Assembly (NCBI GenBank): GCA_963668175.1
Contig: OY764159.1
Span: 1,152,001-1,216,000 of the forward strand
Direction of reading: 5' to 3'
Length of the DNA stretch: 64,000 nucleotides
Source of the DNA: Syntrophales bacterium
GTDB taxonomy: Bacteria > Desulfobacterota > Syntrophia > Syntrophales > PHBD01
Positions within the stretch are counted from its first letter, which is position 1. Each line of letters starts with the position of its first letter. The notes under the pieces were generated by a model that saw nothing but the letters and a program-made list of their open reading frames with translations, was not told the origin of the DNA and searched no databases. Positions 7,914 to 61,255 of this stretch are shown in pieces. The position numbers and the translations under genes are program-made.

Positions 7914-8939
7914 TCACCGCTGCGGTTCGATAATGACTTTCATGGAGGCCCCGGAGCCCGCCACCAGGCGGAAACCTTCTCCCGTTTCGGCGAGGCTCAG
8001 GCGGTGGGTAATCATCTCCTTCACGGCGACTCGCCCGAGCCGCAGAAGATCGATGGCCACGACGGCATCAAGAGGGGCGTTGCCGTATGACGGCGTGATC
8101 TTGATCTCGTTGCGCCAGAATTCGTTGATCGGAACGGAGAGGTTCACGCCGGGTTCGGTTGTGGCGAAGCAGAGGATCGTTCCTCCCCTGTCCGCCGAGT
8201 GGAGGGCCTGTTCGAAAGCGGACGGGGCTCCCGTGCAGACGATCACCAAATCGGCCAGCCTGCCGTTGTTCAGGGCGCGGAATTTCGCCGGGATGTCGTC
8301 CCGGGCGTCGAGGGTGGCGCTGGCTCCCAGCCGCCCGGCCATGTCGAGGCTGAATTTCCGGACATCGGTCGTTACGATCGTCCCCGCACCGGCTGCCCTG
8401 GCTAGAAGGAGGTGGAGAAGTCCGGATATGCCGCTTCCCAGGATGAGAATGGATTGGCCGGCTTGCAGGCCGGCGATTCTCTGGCCGCGAACGACGCAGG
8501 CTAAGGGCTCGATAAAGACGCCTTCCTCATAGGACAGGCTGTCGGGGAGCGGAAAGACGCCGCGATCGACATTCAGAGCCGGAACACGGATGAACTCGGC
8601 GAAGCCCCCGGGGTCGTAGTTGGTCGTGTGAAGGGTTTCGCACGCCGTATGGTGACCCCTCAGGCAATAATGGCACGTATTGCACGGGATATGATGGGAG
8701 ACGAAGACGCGTTGTCCGGGACGGTATTGCCTGACGTCTGCGCCGACTTCGACGATGTCCCCCGCAATCTCGTGCCCCAGGACGAGGGGGGCCTTCTTGA
8801 TGCGGTACCACTCCAGAACGTCGCTCCCGCAGATGCCGCTTGCGATGACCTTCACCAGGATCTCTCCCGCTCCGATTCCCGGACGGGGCCTTTCTTCCAG
8901 GCGGACGTCGTCGTTTCGGTAGTATACGGCTACGCGCAT
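7914..8939 (-). CDS. Zinc-dependent dehydrogenase (MDR, sorbitol/iditol dehydrogenase-like)
   Basis: GICGSD, GHE, CNTCHYC...C structural Zn motif, GSGISG. Confidence 0.92.
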   Translation of the reverse strand: MRVAVYYRNDDVRLEERPRPGIGAGEILVKVIASGICGSDVLEWYRIKKAPLVLGHEIAGDIVEVGADVRQYRPGQRVFVSHHIPCNTCHYCLRGHHTACETLHTTNYDPGGFAEFIRVPALNVDRGVFPLPDSLSYEEGVFIEPLACVVRGQRIAGLQAGQSILILGSGISGLLHLLLARAAGAGTIVTTDVRKFSLDMAGRLGASATLDARDDIPAKFRALNNGRLADLVIVCTGAPSAFEQALHSADRGGTILCFATTEPGVNLSVPINEFWRNEIKITPSYGNAPLDAVVAIDLLRLGRVAVKEMITHRLSLAETGEGFRLVAGSGASMKVIIEPQR

Positions 8940-9104: not shown

Positions 9105-9899
9105 TTACTTTCGTTTTTTTACTGTGCTGTTATAGAGATCGAGGGCTTCGGTCGGTGACATATTCTTGTGAATGATGCCGTGGAGCGCCTTGGCCATCGC
9201 CACCGGGTTGGGGGACTGCCAGACATTCCGGCCCAGGTTCACGCCGATGGCGCCGTTCTGAATGCCGTCATGGACAAATTCCAGGACTTCCAGCGCCGTT
9301 TCGCACTTGGGGCCGCCGGCGAGGACGACCGGTACGGGACAGCCGTAGACGACCTTGTCGAAGTTTTTGCACCAGTAAGTCTTGACGACGCGGGCGCCAA
9401 GTTCGGCGGCAATACGGCTGGCCAACGCCAGGTAGCGGGCGTCCCTCTTCTCCAGTTCCTTGCCGACGGCCGTCACGGCCATGACAGGGATGCCGAAATC
9501 TTCACAGTCGTTCACCAGTTCGGCCAGGTTGGTCAGGGATTCCTTTTCGTAGTCGGTACCGACAAAGATCGACATGCCCACCGCGGCGGCGTTGAGACGG
9601 ATGATCTCCTCGATGGAAGTCGTGATGCCTTCGTTGGCCAGGTCGGCGCCGATGACGCTGGGCCCGCCGGATACGCGGAGGATGATGGGCAGGCTCTTTT
9701 CCGGAGGCAGGCACGCCCGCAGGACGCCCCGTGTGACAAAGATGGCGTCGCAATAAGGCAACAGCGGCTTGATCGTTTCCTGCGGCCTTTCCAGACAACT
9801 CGTCGGGCCCTGAAAATAACCGTGGTCTATCGGCATAAAGAAGCAGCGGCCATCCGGCTGGATGAGCTGCGACATTCTGTTTTGCATTCCCCAATCCAT
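9105..9899 (-). CDS. lsrF: LsrF-type thiolase / DhnA-family class I aldolase
   Basis: MDWGMQNRMS, DHGYFQGPT, RIAAELGARVVKTY, AGGPK, GVNLGRNVWQS. Confidence 0.9.
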   Translation of the reverse strand: MDWGMQNRMSQLIQPDGRCFFMPIDHGYFQGPTSCLERPQETIKPLLPYCDAIFVTRGVLRACLPPEKSLPIILRVSGGPSVIGADLANEGITTSIEEIIRLNAAAVGMSIFVGTDYEKESLTNLAELVNDCEDFGIPVMAVTAVGKELEKRDARYLALASRIAAELGARVVKTYWCKNFDKVVYGCPVPVVLAGGPKCETALEVLEFVHDGIQNGAIGVNLGRNVWQSPNPVAMAKALHGIIHKNMSPTEALDLYNSTVKKRK

Positions 9900-34345: not shown

Positions 34346-35152
34346 CTATTTTTCCGCCGTTCCCTTGAAGAAGGTGTAGCAGAAGGTTCCGTCCCCGGCC
34401 GTTGTCCGCAGAAGTCCGCGGATGCCCTTCTCCCAGGTGTCTCGATCTATCAGACCCGCCGCCAGGGCCGCATCCTTGACTCCTTCGACCATGGCGGTAA
34501 ACGTCTGCTTCGTGAATCCTTCCACAAGATGCGGCCTGCTGGCGTCGACATAGACCATCCGGGGAGACACGCGGATGTCCCTGAAGCCCGTCTCCTTCAT
34601 CAGCGGGTAGAGTTGCCGTCCGATGAGCGAATTTCCGCCCAGTCCGGCCTGGAGGTCGATGAGGCACCGGATCGCTCTTAGGGCCTCGACGCTCTCGGGG
34701 TGGAAATAGGCGGAGCCGTGGTCGCCTTCGATGACGGTGATGGTGCCTCCCGGCTTCAACACCCTCATGAGATGTCGGAGGGCTTCCTGGGGGCGGCTCA
34801 GGTGTTCCAGGACAAAGCAGAGGAAGACGTGGTCGAACTGGCCGTCCGTAAAAGGAAGGTCGTAGATATCCGCCTTCCGGAAACGGACGTTGTCCAGGCC
34901 GGCTCTGTCCGCCGCCGCCTCGGCTTTGGCGAGGGAATCGTCGGAGATGTCGATGGAAAGAAAACGGGCCCGGGGACTCTTTTGGGCCAGGATCACCGTC
35001 TGGGCCCCGACGCCGCATCCAGCCTCCAGCACCTCCGCCCCCGGGGGGTACGAGGTGTCGCCGTGCAGCAGTTCCGTCAGCGAACCAGCCTGGGCAAGGA
35101 GCCTCCGGTCTTCCTCCCCGGAGTATCCGTGGACGTAACGATCGTCTTTCAT
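34346..35152 (-). CDS. Class I SAM-dependent methyltransferase
   Basis: VLEAGCGVG, FDHVF, VLKPGG. Confidence 0.9.
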   Translation of the reverse strand: MKDDRYVHGYSGEEDRRLLAQAGSLTELLHGDTSYPPGAEVLEAGCGVGAQTVILAQKSPRARFLSIDISDDSLAKAEAAADRAGLDNVRFRKADIYDLPFTDGQFDHVFLCFVLEHLSRPQEALRHLMRVLKPGGTITVIEGDHGSAYFHPESVEALRAIRCLIDLQAGLGGNSLIGRQLYPLMKETGFRDIRVSPRMVYVDASRPHLVEGFTKQTFTAMVEGVKDAALAAGLIDRDTWEKGIRGLLRTTAGDGTFCYTFFKGTAEK

Positions 35153-35221
35153 GGAAACAATCCTCCCTTGATCTTTTTACTTCACGATTTTACCGGATAA
35201 AGAAGAGACTTGTCTTGTACG

Positions 35222-36022
35222 TTATTGCGCAAATGAAGAATATTGTCCGGGCGTTAAACCCGTTATGGACTTGAAATGCCGGGTGAGGTGGCTCTGATCG
35301 AAGAATCCCGCGGCCTGAGCGGCATGTGCGAGGGGTACCCGGCGGGCCAGAAGTTCTTTCGCCTTGTCGACGCGTACCTGGGTCAGGTAGGCATGGGGGC
35401 TGAGTCCCGTCTCCATGCGGAAGACACGAATCAGGTGATACCGGCTCATGCCGGAGACGGCGGCCAAGTCGGCCAGAGAGATATTTTCCCGGTAGCGGTC
35501 ATGGATAAGGCCCCGGACCTTTTGCACGGCCGGCCGTTCCCTGCCTGTCCGGAAGCCGTTCGGCCGCGCGGTTGCATGGCGTCCTATCATTCCGATAAGC
35601 GCGGTAAGGAAACGCGTCTCTTTTTCAAGACGATTTCCGCAGTCGTCAAGCGATGCGAAGAAATCCCTGAGGAGGCAAGCGACATAAGTGTCGCGAATCA
35701 CCGGGGAAGGAAAATAGGGGACCTCCGCCGGCCGTCCCGCCGTATCTTCCGCCGCCTCCCGGAGTGCTGCAGCAGATGGATACGAGCATCGGTAAGTCCA
35801 GCCTCCCTCGTCCGGTGCATACCCCGTATGCGGTTCTCCGGGGTTGATAAGGCAGATATCGCCCGCCGTTGCGTAATGCTTGGCGCCGCGATAGTCCGTA
35901 GCCTGGACGCCGGCTTCGATCAGCCCGATTGCGAATCCTTCATGGATATGCCGGGGAAAGACATGGGTGATATAGGTCGCCTTGATGCATTCCAGGCCGG
36001 CAAGGTCGGAAAACCGCGACAT
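35222..36022 (-). CDS. AraC family transcriptional regulator
   Basis: FPRHIH cupin domain; C-terminal GFFDQSHLTRHFK...GLTPGQY. Confidence 0.93.
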   Translation of the reverse strand: MSRFSDLAGLECIKATYITHVFPRHIHEGFAIGLIEAGVQATDYRGAKHYATAGDICLINPGEPHTGYAPDEGGWTYRCSYPSAAALREAAEDTAGRPAEVPYFPSPVIRDTYVACLLRDFFASLDDCGNRLEKETRFLTALIGMIGRHATARPNGFRTGRERPAVQKVRGLIHDRYRENISLADLAAVSGMSRYHLIRVFRMETGLSPHAYLTQVRVDKAKELLARRVPLAHAAQAAGFFDQSHLTRHFKSITGLTPGQYSSFAQ

Positions 36023-36352
36023 CGTTGCCCCTTCTTTATGTGAAGGGTGTGCTTTGTCCGCCGTTCTTCTTTTCATTCCGGTCTGTAACACGATCTGTCT
36101 CACTGAGCCTTTAAGGTTCCTTACGTTTGTTTAGCCGGATGCGCTAGAAAGTCGTTACGCGCATCGGAAAGAATACATCCCCCCGGCCCATACGATACCG
36201 TTCAGGAGGGCGATCATAACACGGTGAGAAATGCTTGCAACAGGATAATCTCCGCCGGAAAGGCGGTCGTCGATAAACGATAATTACGGCGATAAGGTTT
36301 GGAAAAAAGACGAAATAATTCGGAAAAAAAACGGCAGACTGACGCCCCGTTT

Positions 36353-36847
36353 TTACATAAGATAATTCTGCAGGGTCTGGTAACTGCGGAAGTCGGCATC
36401 AACAAATGCCGTGCCGATCTGGACGTCCTCTTCGGATTCGAAGACACGCTGCGGCTGGCACCTCATCTTGAGCGGCCTTGTGGCAAAAGGAAGGGTAAAG
36501 ATGATGTCGAATTCCGCTTCCGTGTTACCGGCCTTGATTTCCAACGCCGTGCCTTTGGGGACCGATATTTTGATGCCTCCCAGGGAGATATCCATGATCG
36601 TACCCGTTTGGTACCCTCTCGCGTCCGCCCTGGCTTCGGCGATGAACGCGGGCAAAGCCACCTGCCTCCTTTCGAATTGTCGCTGGTCGCTCTCTACACC
36701 GCGGAGGACTTTTCTCTCTTTCAGGTATTTGTAGAGCATGTTTTCTATCACCGACGAGAGGCTCTGTCTTTCATCCGCCGATATCTTTTCCAGGGAATTC
36801 CTTATATCCATGTTGGTGCGGAAGCAAATGGTAATGTCTTTCTTCAT
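36353..36847 (-). CDS. Ribbon-helix-helix + PilZ domain protein
   Basis: N-terminal ITICFRT...SLSSVIENML; QRQFERR and DISLGG PilZ motifs. Confidence 0.8.
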   Translation of the reverse strand: MKKDITICFRTNMDIRNSLEKISADERQSLSSVIENMLYKYLKERKVLRGVESDQRQFERRQVALPAFIAEARADARGYQTGTIMDISLGGIKISVPKGTALEIKAGNTEAEFDIIFTLPFATRPLKMRCQPQRVFESEEDVQIGTAFVDADFRSYQTLQNYLM

Positions 36848-37622
36848 TTTCGAAAATCCTTCCCTGTTCTTGCCTTGCAGGCAAATAAGAAAATGATCAA
36901 CCCTCTCATCTAAACATCGGGCCGCGCAAAACCTGACTTTATGCTTCTTCGGCCAATAGTAATACAAAGCGAAACCGCATGTCAAGCGCTATCTTGTCCA
37001 ATAAGGGGTTTTTCCTGCCAGAATATTGCCAGGTTAACGGGGGTGACGGCTTGTCCGCGGACATGGCTCAGGGCAAAGATATTCGCGCATCGGGTCCTGC
37101 GATGTCGCCCTGGGCTTGCCGATCTTCAGTCAGAGGAATCCTCCTCACCCGTTTCTGTCCGTAACGAGGTGTATTTGGACTCCATCGTATGTTAGACGCG
37201 CCTGTCTTCTCCGGGATCATCTTGAAATTGCGGCAGAAGAATCAAATCACCTACCGCTATTTCCAAGGGGCGGCCGCCACAGATACGAGGTCAGCTTCAA
37301 AATTCTACAACAGGGCTGCAAATTCCGGATGTTGCCAAAGGGCGATGCCAGAGAATATAGCTTTTCCTGGCTTCGCGCCCGGTCTTGTCCCTGGAGGAAG
37401 ATATCATCGTAACCGAACGGAATCTGGCAGTGAAAAGCCGATCTACGCGCCGGGGAGACATGGTCGAAACTGAAGTTGAGCGAAATGCATGACGGAAGAA
37501 ATATTCTTCATTTACATTTCTTAATTTCACAAAGGCTGTCTGACAATGTAATGTCGTCCGTGCTGTCCGCTGCCCGCTGTCCGGCCCGGACAGGAATTCC
37601 CTGGAAAAGGAGAAGTTGTGAG

Positions 37623-56234: not shown

Positions 56235-57320
56235 CTATTTGAAGATGTTGTAGTCGAGGCCCCGTATCCGCGCCCTTTCGGCGAACCAGTCGTCTTCCGT
56301 CAGGGGCGGTTTGGTCAATTTGTCCGGCGCCTTGCGGACCAGGCGGATCGCGTCCGCCGGGCAGCGGCGCACGCAAAGGCCGCAGCCGATGCACTTTTCC
56401 TCCACGACACGGTATGCATCTCCGTCTTCCGCGACGGCGCCGACCTGGCAGCGTTCGTCGGCACAGAGGCCGCAGCCGATGCACGTATCGGCGTCGATGA
56501 CGGCATAGTGGTAGGAATTGATGACCACCGACGCCGGGATGCCGAGGTCGTTGATGGCGCTGAGGACTCCGCAGCAGCACTTGCAGCAGTTGCAGATATA
56601 GATGTGCCCCGCCTGGATATTGTACGTGAGATGGACCAGGCCGGCTTCTTCGGCCTTGTCGAGCATTGCGTAGGCCTCCTCCTTGGTGATGACCCGTCCC
56701 GTCGGCGATTTTTTGAACATCCCGGGTACTGGGGCGATGCCCAGGCAGACTTCCAGCGGTTTGTCGCAGGGATGGCCCATCAGGGACTTCTCTTTTTTAC
56801 AGATACATTCGTTCAGGAGAAAGGACCGGCCGGCTTCGATAATGGCCGAAACCTTCTCATACGACAGGCTTTCCTGGTGGCTGGGTATCACCTCGTCGAC
56901 GGCGATGGTCTGCATGAGCGGCGGCTTCTTCGAGAAAAATTCCCTGCCGTAAAGAGGCCAGTATTCCTCCATCAGTTCGGCGAATTCTTTGTCCATCCGG
57001 CCGAGCTGAAATTCGTAGATACCGAATATCCAGGGCATCATTTTAAAATACCGGGTTTTGTCCAGGCGGATCGAGAACAGCTGTCCCGCGACGACCATGT
57101 CGAAAAGCTTTGCCTCCAGGCCTTCCAGGGGGCGGCCCGTGCGCTCGGCGATCTGCTCGGCCGATTCAAACGTCATCTTCAGGTCGCAGAAAAGGTCTGC
57201 CTGTTCGGGGAGGAAGACTTTCTTCAAAAGCTTGATTTCCACGCCGCTTTCCGAGGCAGGGTAGCCGTTCGGCAAGGTATCCAGGACTTTGGCCAACCGC
57301 TGATACATGTCGTCGCTCAT
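56235..57320 (-). CDS. 4Fe-4S binding protein
   Basis: ICNCCKCCC and two CxxCxxC...C ferredoxin motifs. Confidence 0.88.
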   Translation of the reverse strand: MSDDMYQRLAKVLDTLPNGYPASESGVEIKLLKKVFLPEQADLFCDLKMTFESAEQIAERTGRPLEGLEAKLFDMVVAGQLFSIRLDKTRYFKMMPWIFGIYEFQLGRMDKEFAELMEEYWPLYGREFFSKKPPLMQTIAVDEVIPSHQESLSYEKVSAIIEAGRSFLLNECICKKEKSLMGHPCDKPLEVCLGIAPVPGMFKKSPTGRVITKEEAYAMLDKAEEAGLVHLTYNIQAGHIYICNCCKCCCGVLSAINDLGIPASVVINSYHYAVIDADTCIGCGLCADERCQVGAVAEDGDAYRVVEEKCIGCGLCVRRCPADAIRLVRKAPDKLTKPPLTEDDWFAERARIRGLDYNIFK

Positions 57321-57373
57321 GATCCGATCTCCGTTCGTTATTTTGGCATGTTCTCTTTGTTTGCGTCCTATCG

Positions 57374-57967
57374 TTACGGCTCTGTTCTTATCTTTTCCGC
57401 TTTCTTGCCGGCGATGACGGTCTTTCCCGTTTCCATGAGGAGTTTCGTGACTTCCTCTTCCGTCATCTCGGCGATCACGCCGTTGTTGCTCAGGACGGCA
57501 AGGCCGTGGGAGAATATCCACATCTTGTAGAGAATGTCCTTCTTCTCTTCGAGGGTGAACCCCGGCAGGACCGATTCGTCGCGGAGCCTCTCCATGACGG
57601 CTTCGACGACATAGCCGTGACGCCCGCCTGTCTCGTCCCCGGGCTCGTCTTCGCCGGATTCCTTGGAGTAGAGCATCCGGAAGAGGTTCTTTTCGATTTG
57701 GGCGAACAGGACGTAACCGATCCCCATGTCGAGAAATCGCCATCTCGATCTCTCTTTTGTCTGGTAGCGGATGAGCAGGTCGGAAGCCCTCCGGGCGATG
57801 GCGTCCTTGAGTTTCTGCATGCAGCTCAGGCCCGAGTAGATCGGCATCGTGGACGACCCCAGTTCCCGGGCGATCATCCGGGCCGTGCACCTTTCCCAGC
57901 CGTGCTTCCGGGTAACGGAAAAAGCCGCGTCCACGATATCTTCTTTGGTAAATCGTACTTCCGGCAT
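57374..57967 (-). CDS. TetR/AcrR family regulator
   Basis: FTKEDIVDAAF...ARMIARELGSSTMPIY. Confidence 0.88.
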   Translation of the reverse strand: MPEVRFTKEDIVDAAFSVTRKHGWERCTARMIARELGSSTMPIYSGLSCMQKLKDAIARRASDLLIRYQTKERSRWRFLDMGIGYVLFAQIEKNLFRMLYSKESGEDEPGDETGGRHGYVVEAVMERLRDESVLPGFTLEEKKDILYKMWIFSHGLAVLSNNGVIAEMTEEEVTKLLMETGKTVIAGKKAEKIRTEP

Positions 57968-58132: not shown

Positions 58133-58633
58133 ATGTCCATATTTACGGCGAAGCGTTTTGAATATGCGTGTTCCCTGCCCGTAGAGGCGCCTGCCGACGA
58201 GGTCTTTCCGCTTCTTTGTCCCGTGAGGGAGTACGAGTGGATCGACGGCTGGGATTGCCGGCTGGTCTATTCCCGGTCCGGTCTGGCGGAAATGAATGCC
58301 GTCTTCACGACGGATTTCTCCGGCGAGGGTCTCACGGTCTGGGTTACGTCCCATCACGATCCGGCGGCCCGCCGGGTTTCCTATATCCGGGTCACGCCGG
58401 GAATCAAGGTCCTGAGGATGGATTTGCAGGTGGAGGAAGTCCCGGAGGGGCATTCCCTGTGGCGGATAGCCTATACCATGACCGCCCTGGGGGAGGAGGG
58501 CAATGCTTTGATCGAGCATCTGTCGGCGACGAACGGCGGGGAACTCGCGGCCAGGGCCGGACTTCTGGGTCGCATGTTGAACCATTTCCTCAAGACGGGC
58601 AGGATGCTCAAAAAGGAGGAATGGCCCAAGTGA
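58133..58633 (+). CDS. SRPBCC-like (START-fold) protein
   Basis: APADEVFPLLCPVREYEWIDGW N-terminus, C-terminal long helix; RBS AAGGAG. Confidence 0.7.
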   Translation: MSIFTAKRFEYACSLPVEAPADEVFPLLCPVREYEWIDGWDCRLVYSRSGLAEMNAVFTTDFSGEGLTVWVTSHHDPAARRVSYIRVTPGIKVLRMDLQVEEVPEGHSLWRIAYTMTALGEEGNALIEHLSATNGGELAARAGLLGRMLNHFLKTGRMLKKEEWPK

Positions 58634-59178
58634 AGCCCTACCCCATGACAGTCGGCCAGTTGGCGAAGCAGGCGGGTCTGTCCCGAAGCACGCTTCTCTA
58701 TTACGATTCCATCGGTCTCCTGCGACCCACGGGACGGAGCCGCGCCAACTATCGGCGGTATACCGAGGAGGACGCCCGGCGTCTCGAAAAGATTCGTCTT
58801 TATCGGCAGATGGGTCTTTCCACGACGCTCGTCGCCGAAATTCTCGCCGCCCCCAAGAGCGGCGTCCGGGACATCCTGGAGAAAAGGCTTTGGGAACTGG
58901 GCAAGGAAATCGGTCGCCTGAGGGAACAGCAGGAGGTCATCATCCGGATACTGCAGGACAATTCCCTCCGGGGGCGGCTCTCGTTTCTCAGCAAGGACGA
59001 CTGGGTTGCCCTCTTTCGGTCCGCCGGCCTCGACGACGAGGGGATGGAGACGTGGCATCGGGAGTTCGAAAAGCTCTCCCCCCATTCTCATCAGGAGTTT
59101 CTGGAAGGGCTCGGCATCCCGGCCGCAGAGATTGACCTGATCCGGAAAGCGTCCCGGAAGGGGACTCCCGGGAAATGA
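58630..59178 (+). CDS. MerR family transcriptional regulator (no Cys)
   Basis: TVGQLAKQAGLSRSTLLYYDSIGLL, NYRRY; GTGA start/stop overlap with the upstream gene. Confidence 0.92.
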   Translation: MKPYPMTVGQLAKQAGLSRSTLLYYDSIGLLRPTGRSRANYRRYTEEDARRLEKIRLYRQMGLSTTLVAEILAAPKSGVRDILEKRLWELGKEIGRLREQQEVIIRILQDNSLRGRLSFLSKDDWVALFRSAGLDDEGMETWHREFEKLSPHSHQEFLEGLGIPAAEIDLIRKASRKGTPGK

Positions 59179-59197
59179 AGAAAAGGAGGTTCTGATT

Positions 59198-59956
59198 GTG
59201 AATAATCAACTGATGATCGGTTTGTGGCGCCTCATGATCCAGCTTCCCCCGTCCCTTCTGGAGGGCAGGATGGCCAAGGCCAAGGAGAAATTTGCCAGGG
59301 AACTGGCCTTCATGACCGGCGAACACCGGGCGGTCCATCATTATGTAGTCCGTCAGCTTCCCTATGCAACGTCCCCTCTCGCCCCGGAGGCGATCGCCGC
59401 CGCCCTGGGCATGGACCGGGAGAGGGTTGAAACCCTGCTGGACGACCTCGAGAGGCATATGACCTTTCTTTTCAGGAACGACCGGCGGGAGGTTGTCTGG
59501 GCCTATCCGGTTACGCTGGAAAAAACGCCCCACCATCTCACCTTCGGCACGGGTGAAACCGTTTATGCCGCCTGAGCGGCCGACGCGTTCGCGGCGCCCT
59601 TCGTGCAAGGGCGGTTGAGAAAAGAGTCCCTGTCCGTCACCGTTCGTTCGGAATGCGCCCATTGCGGCCGTCCCATGGAGATGGAAATCGACAGCGACCT
59701 TGCGTACCGCGTAAAAGATGACGACTGCCGGCCCGTCGTCTTTATGCCCGACGTCGATCTTTACAAGCTTAAGGATGCCAGCATCATCGACGCCTTCTGA
59801 AAGGAGAGCGTCTTCTTCTGGTCAGAAGAGCATGCCAAGGCTTACAGGAAATCCGTTCATAGGATTCGTGGCGTCTATTTCAGCGCCGCACAGCTGGTCC
59901 GGGCAACCCGCGTCGCCCAAAGCGCCCTTTTCGGCTTCGACGGTCCTGCGCCGTGA
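59198..59956 (+). CDS. MerB-like organometal lyase, predicted selenoprotein with two Sec (UGA at 59573 and 59798), 252 aa
   Basis: One continuous frame: WAYPVTLEKTPHHL, VYAA-U-AADAF, SECAHCG, IIDAF-U-KESVFFWSEEHA; SECIS-like hairpin after each UGA; RBS AAGGAGG. Confidence 0.85.
59592..59617 (+). other. Putative SECIS element 1
   Basis: CGCCCTT-CGTGC-AAGGGCG stem-loop with GU in the loop; loop starts 26 nt after the UGA. Confidence 0.65.
59808..59835 (+). other. Putative SECIS element 2
   Basis: GCGT-C-TTCTTCT-GGTC-AGAAGAG-C-ATGC; GGUC apical loop starts 19 nt after the UGA. Confidence 0.75.
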
Positions 59957-60079
59957 AGCCTTTCGTCGGCAAAGCTGCGAAGGTTCTTCCCGCCGCTTTT
60001 TTGCCTTGTTCGCCCTGCGTTATTATAGTATGAAAGTTCCCTCGAAACGTCGGATGCGTTTTCAACAGGGAACGGTACG

Positions 60080-61255
60080 ATGAGAATCATTCTTTTTACC
60101 GGCAAAGGGGGAACCGGTAAGACCACCTGTGCTGCGGCCACTGCTATGAAGACGGCAGCGTCAGGTTTGCGCACCCTCATCATCTCCACGGACTCCGCCC
60201 ACAGCCTGGCCGATGCCCTCGACGTCAAATTGGGGCCCGAGCCGGCCGAGGCGGCGGAAAACCTCTACGCCCAGGAACTCGACATCTATTACTCCATGCG
60301 CAAGTACTGGGGGAACCTCAGCAATATGCTCCGCCAGGCCTTAAGCTGGCAGCGCATGGACCGGATGCTGGTGGAGGAAATGGCCGCCCTGCCGGGTATG
60401 GCGGAGGCCTCGGCCTTCCTGTGGGTCGACAAGTATTACCGGGAAGGGGAGTACGACGTCCTTATCGTCGACAGTGCGCCCACGGGCGAAACCCTGACCC
60501 TCCTCACGCTGCCCCAGGTCAGCCGATGGTGGACCTCCAAGCTTTTCCCCTACCCGAAGATGGCGACGAAGGCCTTCGGCGCCTTTGTGCATGCGACGAC
60601 CGGCATCCCCCTGGACGAAAGCTACCGGGAGCTGGACGACCTTTTCACGAAGCTGGAGAGTCTCTATGAGATTTTCAGCAACCCCCTGATCACCTCCGTC
60701 CGCGTCGTCACCAACCCGGAGAAAATGGCCGTCCAGGAGGCCAAACGGGCCTATACGTATCTGCTGCTTCACGGCTACAGCGTCGACGCCGTGATCGTCA
60801 ACCGAGTCCTGCCCGATGCATCCGCCGACTCTTTCTGGAAGGGTTATCTGCAATCCCAAAAGCATTACCTGGAGGATATCGGGACGTCTTTTTATCCCCT
60901 GCCTGTCTTCACGCTGCATCATACAGGCCGGGAGGTGTTCGGCATAGAGATGCTCGGCCGCCTCGGCGACGGGCTCTATGCGGGGCGAAATCCCGTCGAG
61001 GTCCTTCATGCGGAAAAATCTTTTGTACTGGAAGATGTGGGGGAAATCGTGAGGCTCAAATTGAGGCTGCCGTTCTTTGAGAACAGCGACTTCAGGATCG
61101 AGCAGTTCGGCGACGAGTTGGTCATCAACATCCGGAACAACCGGCGCAATCTCTTCCTGCCCAAATTCATGGGCCATTTCGTCATCCGGGACTATTATTA
61201 CGAAGATCCGAACCTCGTCGTTCTCTTTTCACGGATTACGCCTTTCGGATCATGA
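60080..61255 (+). CDS. ArsA/GET3-like ATPase with C-terminal HSP20-like domain
   Basis: GKGGTGKTT, STDSAHSL, DSAPTG, VTNPEKM; C-terminal LRLPF...GDELVI. Confidence 0.9.
   Translation: MRIILFTGKGGTGKTTCAAATAMKTAASGLRTLIISTDSAHSLADALDVKLGPEPAEAAENLYAQELDIYYSMRKYWGNLSNMLRQALSWQRMDRMLVEEMAALPGMAEASAFLWVDKYYREGEYDVLIVDSAPTGETLTLLTLPQVSRWWTSKLFPYPKMATKAFGAFVHATTGIPLDESYRELDDLFTKLESLYEIFSNPLITSVRVVTNPEKMAVQEAKRAYTYLLLHGYSVDAVIVNRVLPDASADSFWKGYLQSQKHYLEDIGTSFYPLPVFTLHHTGREVFGIEMLGRLGDGLYAGRNPVEVLHAEKSFVLEDVGEIVRLKLRLPFFENSDFRIEQFGDELVINIRNNRRNLFLPKFMGHFVIRDYYYEDPNLVVLFSRITPFGS

Follow-up and report, generated by a model that had tools for sequence, protein, structure and literature searches.

Within the 64-kb window analysed here, a stretch of a Syntrophales contig (OY764159.1), a MerB-superfamily gene at 59198..59956 (plus strand; 252 codons and a stop) has an in-frame UGA at two places, residues 126 and 201 of its translation, and each UGA is followed in the coding sequence by a hairpin resembling a bacterial selenocysteine insertion sequence (bSECIS) element. 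We consider it likely, with a probability of roughly 0.85, that both UGAs are decoded as selenocysteine (Sec) by SelB-dependent insertion, by analogy with the established bacterial mechanism, and the gene probably represents an undescribed selenoprotein subfamily. What might distinguish two such hairpins from chance palindromes? As judged by sequence comparison, it is the conserved data of the relatives, and not the folding of a single sequence, that settle that the hairpins exceed chance.

The reading frame and its two hairpins

Once both in-frame TGAs are read through, a single frame runs from a GTG start at 59198 to the true stop, a TGA at 59954..59956; a Shine-Dalgarno-like AAGGAGG (59183..59189, plus strand) stands 8 nucleotides (nt) ahead of the start, and the N-terminus agrees with those of the homologs. 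UGA1, the proposed Sec126 codon, lies at 59573..59575 and UGA2, the proposed Sec201 codon, at 59798..59800, both on the plus strand like the hairpins and the stop. Hairpin 1, the proposed SECIS 1 (59595..59613), consists of a 7-bp stem, CGCCCUU (59595-59601) with AAGGGCG (59607-59613), and a CGUGC loop (59602-59606) that begins 26 nt past UGA1. Hairpin 2, the proposed SECIS 2 (59808..59835), rises through GCGU (59808-59811), a C and UUCUUCU (59813-59819) to the loop GGUC (59820-59823), which begins 19 nt past UGA2, and returns through AGAAGAG (59824-59830), a C and AUGC (59832-59835). It thus has a 4-bp lower stem, a 1x1 C/C mismatch and a 7-bp upper stem, with 11 pairs in all, one of them a U.G wobble. 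An earlier note on this DNA had given the same hairpin positions, sequences and loop spacings, and direct reading of the sequence agrees with it exactly.

Both hairpins are contained in the minimum-energy structures predicted by RNAfold, with segment energies of -11.2 kcal/mol for hairpin 1 and -10.7 kcal/mol for hairpin 2. They were compared with published bSECIS constraints, in our own implementation of those given in the legend to Fig. 2 of PMC13188914: a loop of 3-9 nt in which the first or second base is G and the next one G or U, an upper stem of 4-16 bp, a spacing of 16-37 nt and a folding energy of -7.5 kcal/mol or lower. Both in-frame TGAs of the lyase gene pass the scan (-9.8 and -9.5 kcal/mol), in agreement with the earlier note's claim that a SECIS-like hairpin follows each UGA, and the terminal stop fails it, having no such hairpin 3' of it. 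The loop-start rule holds for CGUGC, with G at position 2 and then U, and for GGUC, with G at position 1 and then G; hairpin 2 also fits the frequent N1-G-[G/U]-N-N2 sub-pattern, with N1 and N2 absent. Across the window a constraint-compliant hairpin follows 70 of 1834 TGA triplets (3.8%), or 25 of 1834 (1.4%) when an upper stem of at least 7 bp is required. Single-sequence evidence alone is suggestive, not decisive.

Nine further candidates, each an in-frame TGA with a hairpin, lie elsewhere in the window. The candidate at 9504 (minus strand) was rejected on its translation, a low-complexity Arg/Pro/Gly-rich antisense sequence, and the one at 8070 does not share the frame of an overlapping alcohol dehydrogenase open reading frame (ORF). 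At gathering thresholds, Rfam detected two tRNAs in the whole window and no bacterial SECIS, and a permissive scan of 59400-60050 returned only sub-threshold minus-strand matches (IRES_Bip, snoR30 and PhrS), which we deem irrelevant. The IRES_Bip match (59779-59846, minus strand; 17.7 bits against a gathering threshold of 40, E-value 0.0039) lies opposite hairpin 2 and is taken as a spurious match to a palindrome. A covariance model of hairpin 2 clearly found only hairpin 2 itself in the window (69.8 bits); its next match, at 36847-36906 (minus strand; 15 bits, E-value 0.059), is in or beside a PilZ-domain ORF (36353-36985, minus strand).

Hairpin 2 recalls the SECIS of enterobacterial fdhF, for which PMC4489274 describes the importance of the GGUC hairpin identity and of a bulged U18, with GGUC starting 18 nt after the UGA; the GGUC apex that the earlier note had attributed to fdhF is confirmed there. 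Like the fdhF element, hairpin 2 lies in coding sequence after its UGA and has a GGUC apex, a Watson-Crick closing pair and a similar spacing (19 versus 18 nt). Unlike it, hairpin 2 has no bulged U in its upper stem, a 1x1 C/C mismatch lies 7 bp below the loop, and the stem is AU-rich. Hairpin 1 differs from fdhF in its CGUGC loop and its 26-nt spacing. Both hairpins resemble the consensus bSECIS model as set out in PMC13188914 in loop, stem, G[G/U], spacing and energy; the departures are the unpaired first and fifth loop bases of hairpin 1 and, in some relatives, stems weaker than the energy limit.

Conservation of the UGAs and hairpins in relatives

A first protein search yielded 77 proteins: 25 stop immediately before the UGA1 column (site 1), 10 continue past a Cys at site 1 but stop short of the UGA2 column (site 2), and about 38 are full length with Trp at both sites, on short contigs (~0.9-2.6 kb). 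The NCBI-sourced relatives from this search are truncated at a UGA. The Trp residues are presumably TGA translated under table 4, which the gene caller would pick on short contigs, where it lengthens the ORF; this looks like an artefact of annotation by which selenoproteins would be concealed. Genomes were scanned with a profile of N-terminal fragments, so that the UGA columns were avoided, and the best 80 of 286 relatives gave 79 loci. These are mostly metagenome-assembled genomes of Thermodesulfobacteriota (Syntrophales, Smithellaceae, Desulfomonilaceae and Desulfobacterales), with a few from Nitrospirota, Chloroflexia/Anaerolineae, Abyssobacteria and Bacteroidota. TGA occupies both sites in the window gene and in 78/78 loci that reach both, the 79th (L067) ending before site 2; that is, site 1 is TGA in 80/80 sequences and site 2 in the 79/79 that reach it, and none of the 80 has an additional in-frame TGA. 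The earlier note had judged a chance double nonsense mutation unlikely, and this distribution bears it out. Terminal stops in the relatives are a mixture of TGA, TAA and TAG, protein identity among the two-TGA sequences is 52-65%, and the frame and its conserved residues run on through both sites. The arrangement of two UGAs and two hairpins is the rule in this large family, whose members come chiefly from anaerobic Thermodesulfobacteriota and in some cases from Nitrospirota and Chloroflexota.

When 1.84 billion cluster representatives were searched exhaustively with a profile, 983 matches were obtained at E-values of 1e-3 or below, 376 at 1e-10 or below and 56 at 1e-30 or below. Among the best 150, 88 terminate precisely at profile position 125 (UGA1), nine have Cys at site 1 and stop at site 2 or shortly before it, and four correspond to the middle piece, positions 128-200. 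Full-length forms without UGA in this set have Ser/Cys, Gly/Cys, Glu/Leu, Gly/Gly or Ser/Arg at sites 1/2 (P0033, P0048, P0142, P0116, P0132, P0084, P0088 and P0090). A Cys/Cys form is missing from the best 150 representatives, which suggests that at least one Sec is present in every catalytically complete member of this branch. Cys stands at site 1 in 19 relatives, and at site 2 in five relatives and in MerB, giving a Sec/Cys pairing at each column.

Gap-free alignments of the TGA and the following 51 nt comprised 80 sequences for hairpin 1 and 79 for hairpin 2, and pairs are numbered here by alignment column. The CGUGC loop is invariant in 80/80 sequences and the GGUC loop in 79/79; RNAalifold independently predicts both hairpins, and RNAfold forms the apical hairpin in every individual segment (80/80 and 79/79). 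Energies of -7.5 kcal/mol or lower are reached by 69/80 versions of hairpin 1 (median -10.9, weakest -5.1) and 76/79 versions of hairpin 2 (median -11.3, weakest -5.7), and a crude bSECIS scan passes 54/80 UGA1 sites and 64/79 UGA2 sites in comparison with 3/42 terminal TGAs. In hairpin 1 (77 distinct rows) pairs 25/39, 26/38 and 29/35 are invariant, pair 27/37 is C-G in 76 and U.G in 1, pair 28/36 is U-A in 65 and U.G in 12, and pair 24/40 is G-C in 65, U-A in 4 and unpaired in 8. At this last pair, L010, L037, L043 and L045 combine a Thr ACG to ACT change with Arg139 to Lys (CGA to AAA), which restores the pair as U-A; in four other sequences, with ACA and AAA, it is unpaired. In hairpin 2 (78 distinct rows) four upper-stem pairs are invariant, the closing pair 22/27 is U-A in 64, C-G in 12 and U.G in 2, without an unpaired row, pair 19/30 is U-A in 77 and C-G in 1, and pair 16/33 is U-A in 68, U.G in 9 and otherwise in 1. 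The lower-stem pairs 11-14/35-38 are paired in 88-99% of sequences, and columns 15/34 are mismatched in 74/78; possible extra pairs 9/40 and 10/39 are mostly unpaired and were placed outside the structure. Shuffle and slide controls favour the named structures, with 92.4% and 79.9% of cells paired, whereas sliding the partner leaves no more than 62% paired; the controls are biased towards the structure, since it came from the same sequences.

The closing pair of hairpin 2 supplies the clearest covariation. Across all 79 sequences it is U-A in 64, C-G in 13 and U.G in 2, and the change from U-A to C-G joins the replacement of Trp208 by Arg (TGG to CGG) to a synonymous Ser codon change from TCA to TCG, C22 being accompanied by G27 in 13/13. 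On a protein tree (IQ-TREE quick, LG+G4, 79 proteins) column 22 has changed at least seven times, and among five independent pairs with good branch support a change at column 22 is followed by one at column 27 in 4.9 of 5, and the opposite outcome never occurs; the sign test gives p = 0.0625, which is the best value reachable with five pairs.

Synonymous codon choice points the same way. Among columns whose amino acid is at least 90% conserved, the hairpin 1 codons are Pro134 CCC in 79/80, Phe135 TTC in 80/80, Val136 GTG in 80/80 and Gly138 GGG in 80/80, and the hairpin 2 codons are Phe206 TTC in 79/79, Phe207 TTC in 78/78 and Glu210 GAA in 78/79, with Ser209 encoded by TCA (64) or TCG (15) and nothing else. 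Elsewhere in the gene the top codon for Pro, Phe, Val and Gly accounts for a fraction of 0.35-0.70. Normalised codon entropy separates the 10 hairpin codons from 66 other conserved codons (median 0.86, minimum 0.32; Mann-Whitney p = 4.7e-7): synonymous sites are frozen only within the hairpins. The earlier note would have counted a lack of hairpin conservation in UGA-containing homologs against its reading, and the opposite is observed: the loops are invariant, the stems are kept, compensatory changes occur and synonymous sites are frozen.

Is hairpin 1 tied to its UGA? The hairpin 1 stem can be encoded only if residues 134-138 read P-[F/L]-x-[Q/E/K]-G, and this peptide is present in 39/39 relatives with Trp at site 1 (taken as TGA), in 6/19 with Cys, in 0/10 with Glu, Gly or Ser and in the single relative with Arg (1/1). 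The difference between Trp and Cys at site 1 (39/0 versus 6/13) gives a Fisher p of 8.6e-9, and in the relatives with Cys at site 1, Q137 and G138 are relaxed. The coding constraint of hairpin 1 is lost when UGA1 is replaced by Cys, which ties the hairpin to UGA1; in this protein-level shadow, hairpin 1 appears to be kept where the UGA is kept and to decay where it is gone.

A predicted MerB-fold product and its known counterparts

The read-through product matches the Pfam MerB family PF03243 with an E-value of 3.3e-16 and 59.8 bits, above the gathering cut-off of 27. A family profile of 40 members, compared with proteins in the PDB, matches MerB2 (5c17) with an E-value of 7.6e-7 and E. coli-type MerB (1s6l/3f0p) with 2.6e-6. 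In the MerB profile alignment codon 126 is aligned with the Cys of LYAWCALD (family lyaaCavD) and codon 201 with the first Cys of SFCCHVHFF (family afCkesvFF), and the UGA1, UGA2 and D129 columns are those of MerB Cys96, Cys159 and Asp99, in the numbering used in bioRxiv 10.1101/2022.07.06.499078. D129 is invariant in 40/40 sequences. From this alignment, a triad of the Cys96/Asp99/Cys159 type would be retained only if both UGAs are decoded as Sec. An AlphaFold2 model of the whole 252-residue product has a predicted local distance difference test (pLDDT) score of 83.4 and a predicted template modelling score of 0.82, with low pLDDT at residues 1-30. Its top 11 PDB fold matches by Foldseek are all MerB or MerB2 (best E-value 4.8e-12), with template modelling scores, normalised to the target, of 0.75-0.80 for crystal structures and 0.60 for a nuclear magnetic resonance model. 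The NCBIfam MerB models NF033555 and NF009710 score below their cut-offs (56.5 against 200 and 57.4 against 193), as does the SaoL model NF040728 (44.7 bits against 140).

SaoL (NF040728; Haft and Gwadz, bioRxiv 10.1101/2022.07.06.499078) is the closest precedent in kind, sharing with the window protein a MerB fold, an occurrence in anaerobes and Sec at the Cys159 column. It is described there as routinely mis-annotated as truncated at its UGA, as is the window family. However, SaoL as presented in that preprint is about 213 residues long, belongs to a nine-gene SAO locus, retains Cys at the Cys96 column and carries its single Sec in a CU dipeptide, whereas the window protein has two predicted Sec residues (in AAU and AFU, with no CU) and 252 residues, and no SAO-like neighbourhood was seen at the 79 loci, where only a regulator is conserved. 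With MerB itself (EC 4.99.1.2; 1s6l, 3f0o and 3f0p, and MerB2 5c17) the protein shares the fold, the two metal-ligand positions and the aspartate; it differs in its low identity (~19%), in having UGA for both ligand Cys codons and in an additional helical stretch of some 40 residues at its N-terminus.

Table 1 of PMC13188914 includes bacterial proteins that contain two or three Sec residues (for example MbdU, MduS and arsenite methyltransferase fusions), so two UGAs in one bacterial gene are not unprecedented. Unlike the double selenoproteins of that table, the window protein has a MerB domain, and its two predicted Sec residues are 75 residues apart and would both be ligands of one metal site. 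SaoL is the only MerB-like selenoprotein in the table's 119-family 2026 catalogue and in NCBIfam 20.0. Our literature searches for a two-Sec MerB gave only SaoL-related work, and an earlier description may exist elsewhere; the deep-Sep paper (PMC12013277) mentions neither MerB nor mercury, and one BSepDB supplement contains no MerB, SaoL or alkylmercury term.

In the mechanism that we propose, each hairpin, positioned immediately downstream of its UGA in the mRNA, would recruit SelB carrying Sec-tRNA(Sec) while the ribosome is at that codon, and the UGA would thereby be read as Sec and not as a stop, as in the known bacterial mechanism. The product would be a 252-residue MerB-fold protein in which U126 and U201 replace both metal-ligand Cys residues and the proton donor D129 is kept. 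By analogy with MerB, an organometal could then be bound between two selenolates and its metal-carbon bond cut by protonolysis.

Alternative readings, genomic setting and implications

Several observations weigh against Sec decoding at both UGAs. The 60-nt folding energies are no better than those of dinucleotide shuffles (z of +0.81 for hairpin 1 and +0.40 for hairpin 2), and 163/200 and 123/200 shuffles, respectively, fold at least as well. The first and last bases of the hairpin 1 loop are both C and cannot pair, and so the N1-G-[G/U]-N-N2 sub-pattern is absent from it; PMC13188914 states that this N1-N2 pairing holds for "mostly", not all, bacterial SECIS elements. Eleven of 80 hairpin 1 versions are weaker than -7.5 kcal/mol, and the outermost pair, 23/41, is C-G in 50 distinct rows and unpaired in 27. 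Hairpin 1 is nearly invariant, so there is little covariation on offer, and at pair 24/40 the partner followed in only 1/3 independent pairs; the covariation that the earlier note had called for is clear at the closing pair of hairpin 2, with its U-A and C-G forms, and weak at this one. The peptide test is weak for hairpin 2, the strict FF[WR]SEE occurring in 35/41 relatives with Trp and 0/5 with Cys at site 2, with several of the misses near-compatible. The locus sample leans towards Sec forms, because the profile behind it came from fragments truncated at UGA1 and the set was limited to the 80 best matches. Genes for selA, selB, selD and tRNA-Sec were looked for in the 64-kb window and none was found, and no merA, merT or merP is among the window ORFs, which leaves the gene without a mer operon context. 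Nor does the MerR-family regulator encoded upstream contain any Cys, so thiolate metal sensing as in MerR is not to be expected of it. Sec decoding in the host is plausible from its relatives only: the closest sequences to the window lyase in the protein tree come from Syntrophales, and Desulfobacterota rank first among the organisms that BSepDB lists as rich in selenoproteins.

In the light of these points, the rival that retains most credibility, although we hold it to be unlikely, is that a single SECIS works, most plausibly hairpin 2, and that hairpin 1 serves pausing or mRNA stability, or that UGA1 is an inefficient or regulated stop yielding a 125-residue product. The less canonical loop of hairpin 1, its longer spacing, its near lack of covariation and its weaker stems in some relatives all suit this idea; yet hairpin 1 lies within the published constraints, its loop does not vary in any of the 80 sequences, and its constraint vanishes where site 1 is Cys. 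According to PMC13188914 a bacterial SECIS acts solely on the UGA immediately 5' of it, so hairpin 2, 225 nt downstream, could not serve UGA1. We find it quite improbable that the nucleotide conservation reflects protein constraint and codon bias (TPFVQG and VFFWSEEH), with read-through independent of the hairpins. Classical MerB, too, has conserved P, G and R residues following site 1 and FF following site 2 (FPALIGR and HVHFF), so part of the conservation must lie at the protein level, but protein constraint does not explain why third codon positions are frozen only in hairpin codons, why Trp208 to Arg is always (13/13) accompanied by a pair-restoring synonymous Ser change, or why Q137 and G138 relax where Cys replaces UGA1.

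The two remaining rivals deny the hairpins any role. Reading of UGA as a standard amino acid (Trp under table 4 or Gly under table 25) might seem to be indicated by public gene calls, in which about 39 relatives have Trp at both sites, but these calls are confined to the short contigs, both columns are MerB catalytic Cys columns, and UGA-free relatives carry Cys, not Trp, at site 1. TGA is moreover an ordinary stop here, since 12 of 30 Pfam-backed window ORFs end in it at full domain length, and a recoded genetic code is for this reason very unlikely. Recoding of UGA is not known from Thermodesulfobacteriota, Nitrospirota or Chloroflexota, the groups from which the loci come. Least credible of all, to the point of near dismissal, is a pseudogene or an ORF split three ways by two nonsense mutations, with chance palindromes for hairpins. 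It would accommodate the fold energies that do not exceed those of shuffles, and the public annotation of the pieces as separate short proteins, with 88 of the best 150 representatives ending at UGA1, but not the presence of TGA in the same two codons in 79/79 sequences, with frame and conserved residues continuing past both; a start codon or ribosome-binding site is neither needed nor conserved after the TGAs, and the entire 252-residue read-through is modelled as one MerB domain fold. Decoding of both UGAs as Sec remains the reading that we prefer.

The gene lies in a chromosomal setting, the window containing recA, alaS, mutL, miaA, purA, serA and others. The MerR-family regulator gene (58621..59178, plus strand; 185 residues; Pfam MerR_1 E-value 1.3e-14, MerR 6.3e-12), with its ATG at 58621 after AAAGGAGGA, shares its strand with the lyase gene, which it precedes by 19 nt. 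The place immediately before the lyase is taken by a MerR-type homolog at 18/79 loci and by a MarR-family gene at 15/79, and neighbours are otherwise not conserved. Downstream lies an ArsA/GET3-family ATPase gene (60080..61255, plus strand; 391 residues) encoding a single ATPase domain and a C-terminal HSP20-like domain; a link to arsenic was dropped because an ArsA/GET3-like ATPase occurs in only 1/79 loci, and there at another position. Immediately ahead of the regulator-lyase pair, 56235-57890 (minus strand) encodes a 551-residue protein whose sole recognised domain is a C-terminal 4Fe-4S dicluster, preceded by some 460 unassigned residues; weak homologs of it are near the lyase gene in 4/79 loci. 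Farther away, at 34346-36103 (minus strand), a SAM (S-adenosylmethionine)-dependent methyltransferase gene (Methyltransf_11/25/31) adjoins an AraC-family regulator.

What might such a protein do? Organometal lyase activity of some kind is, in our estimate from the MerB analogy, an even bet; the substrate would be an organomercurial or another organometal(loid), and activity on methylmercury specifically is less probable. More ambitiously, and only as a tentative proposal that we think rather unlikely to hold in full, the gene could be viewed as the founding example of an uncatalogued, widespread family of diselenolate MerB-type lyases (two Sec and Asp), each made by means of two different SECIS elements in one mRNA. 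The family would occur in hundreds of anaerobic lineages without a mer operon, and it could supply the missing enzyme of mer-independent methylmercury degradation in anoxic sediments or could act on other organometal(loid)s. If the diselenolate reading is true, the very high affinity of Hg for Se raises the question of product release. PMC10114901 describes anaerobic demethylation pathways as unvalidated and MerB homologs as frequent in anaerobes, and reports that selenium compounds and a selone mimic of MerB cleave Hg-C bonds chemically.

The family is systematically broken in public databases, appearing as fragments that stop at UGA1 or with Trp under the wrong code, so surveys of merB-like genes in anaerobes would miss or miscount it. 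It also offers a natural case of two unlike SECIS elements, GGUC and CGUGC, in one mRNA, each under dual protein and RNA constraint, and the relatives that have switched to Cys at site 1 provide an internal control, which makes the system suited to asking what loops SelB tolerates and how efficient double insertion is; that the unlike loops confer unequal Sec insertion efficiency, as the earlier note had supposed, is speculation. With a MerB fold in which both ligands are predicted selenolates, and with its common occurrence in sulfate-reducing and syntrophic lineages, the family is a candidate for anaerobic organomercury turnover.

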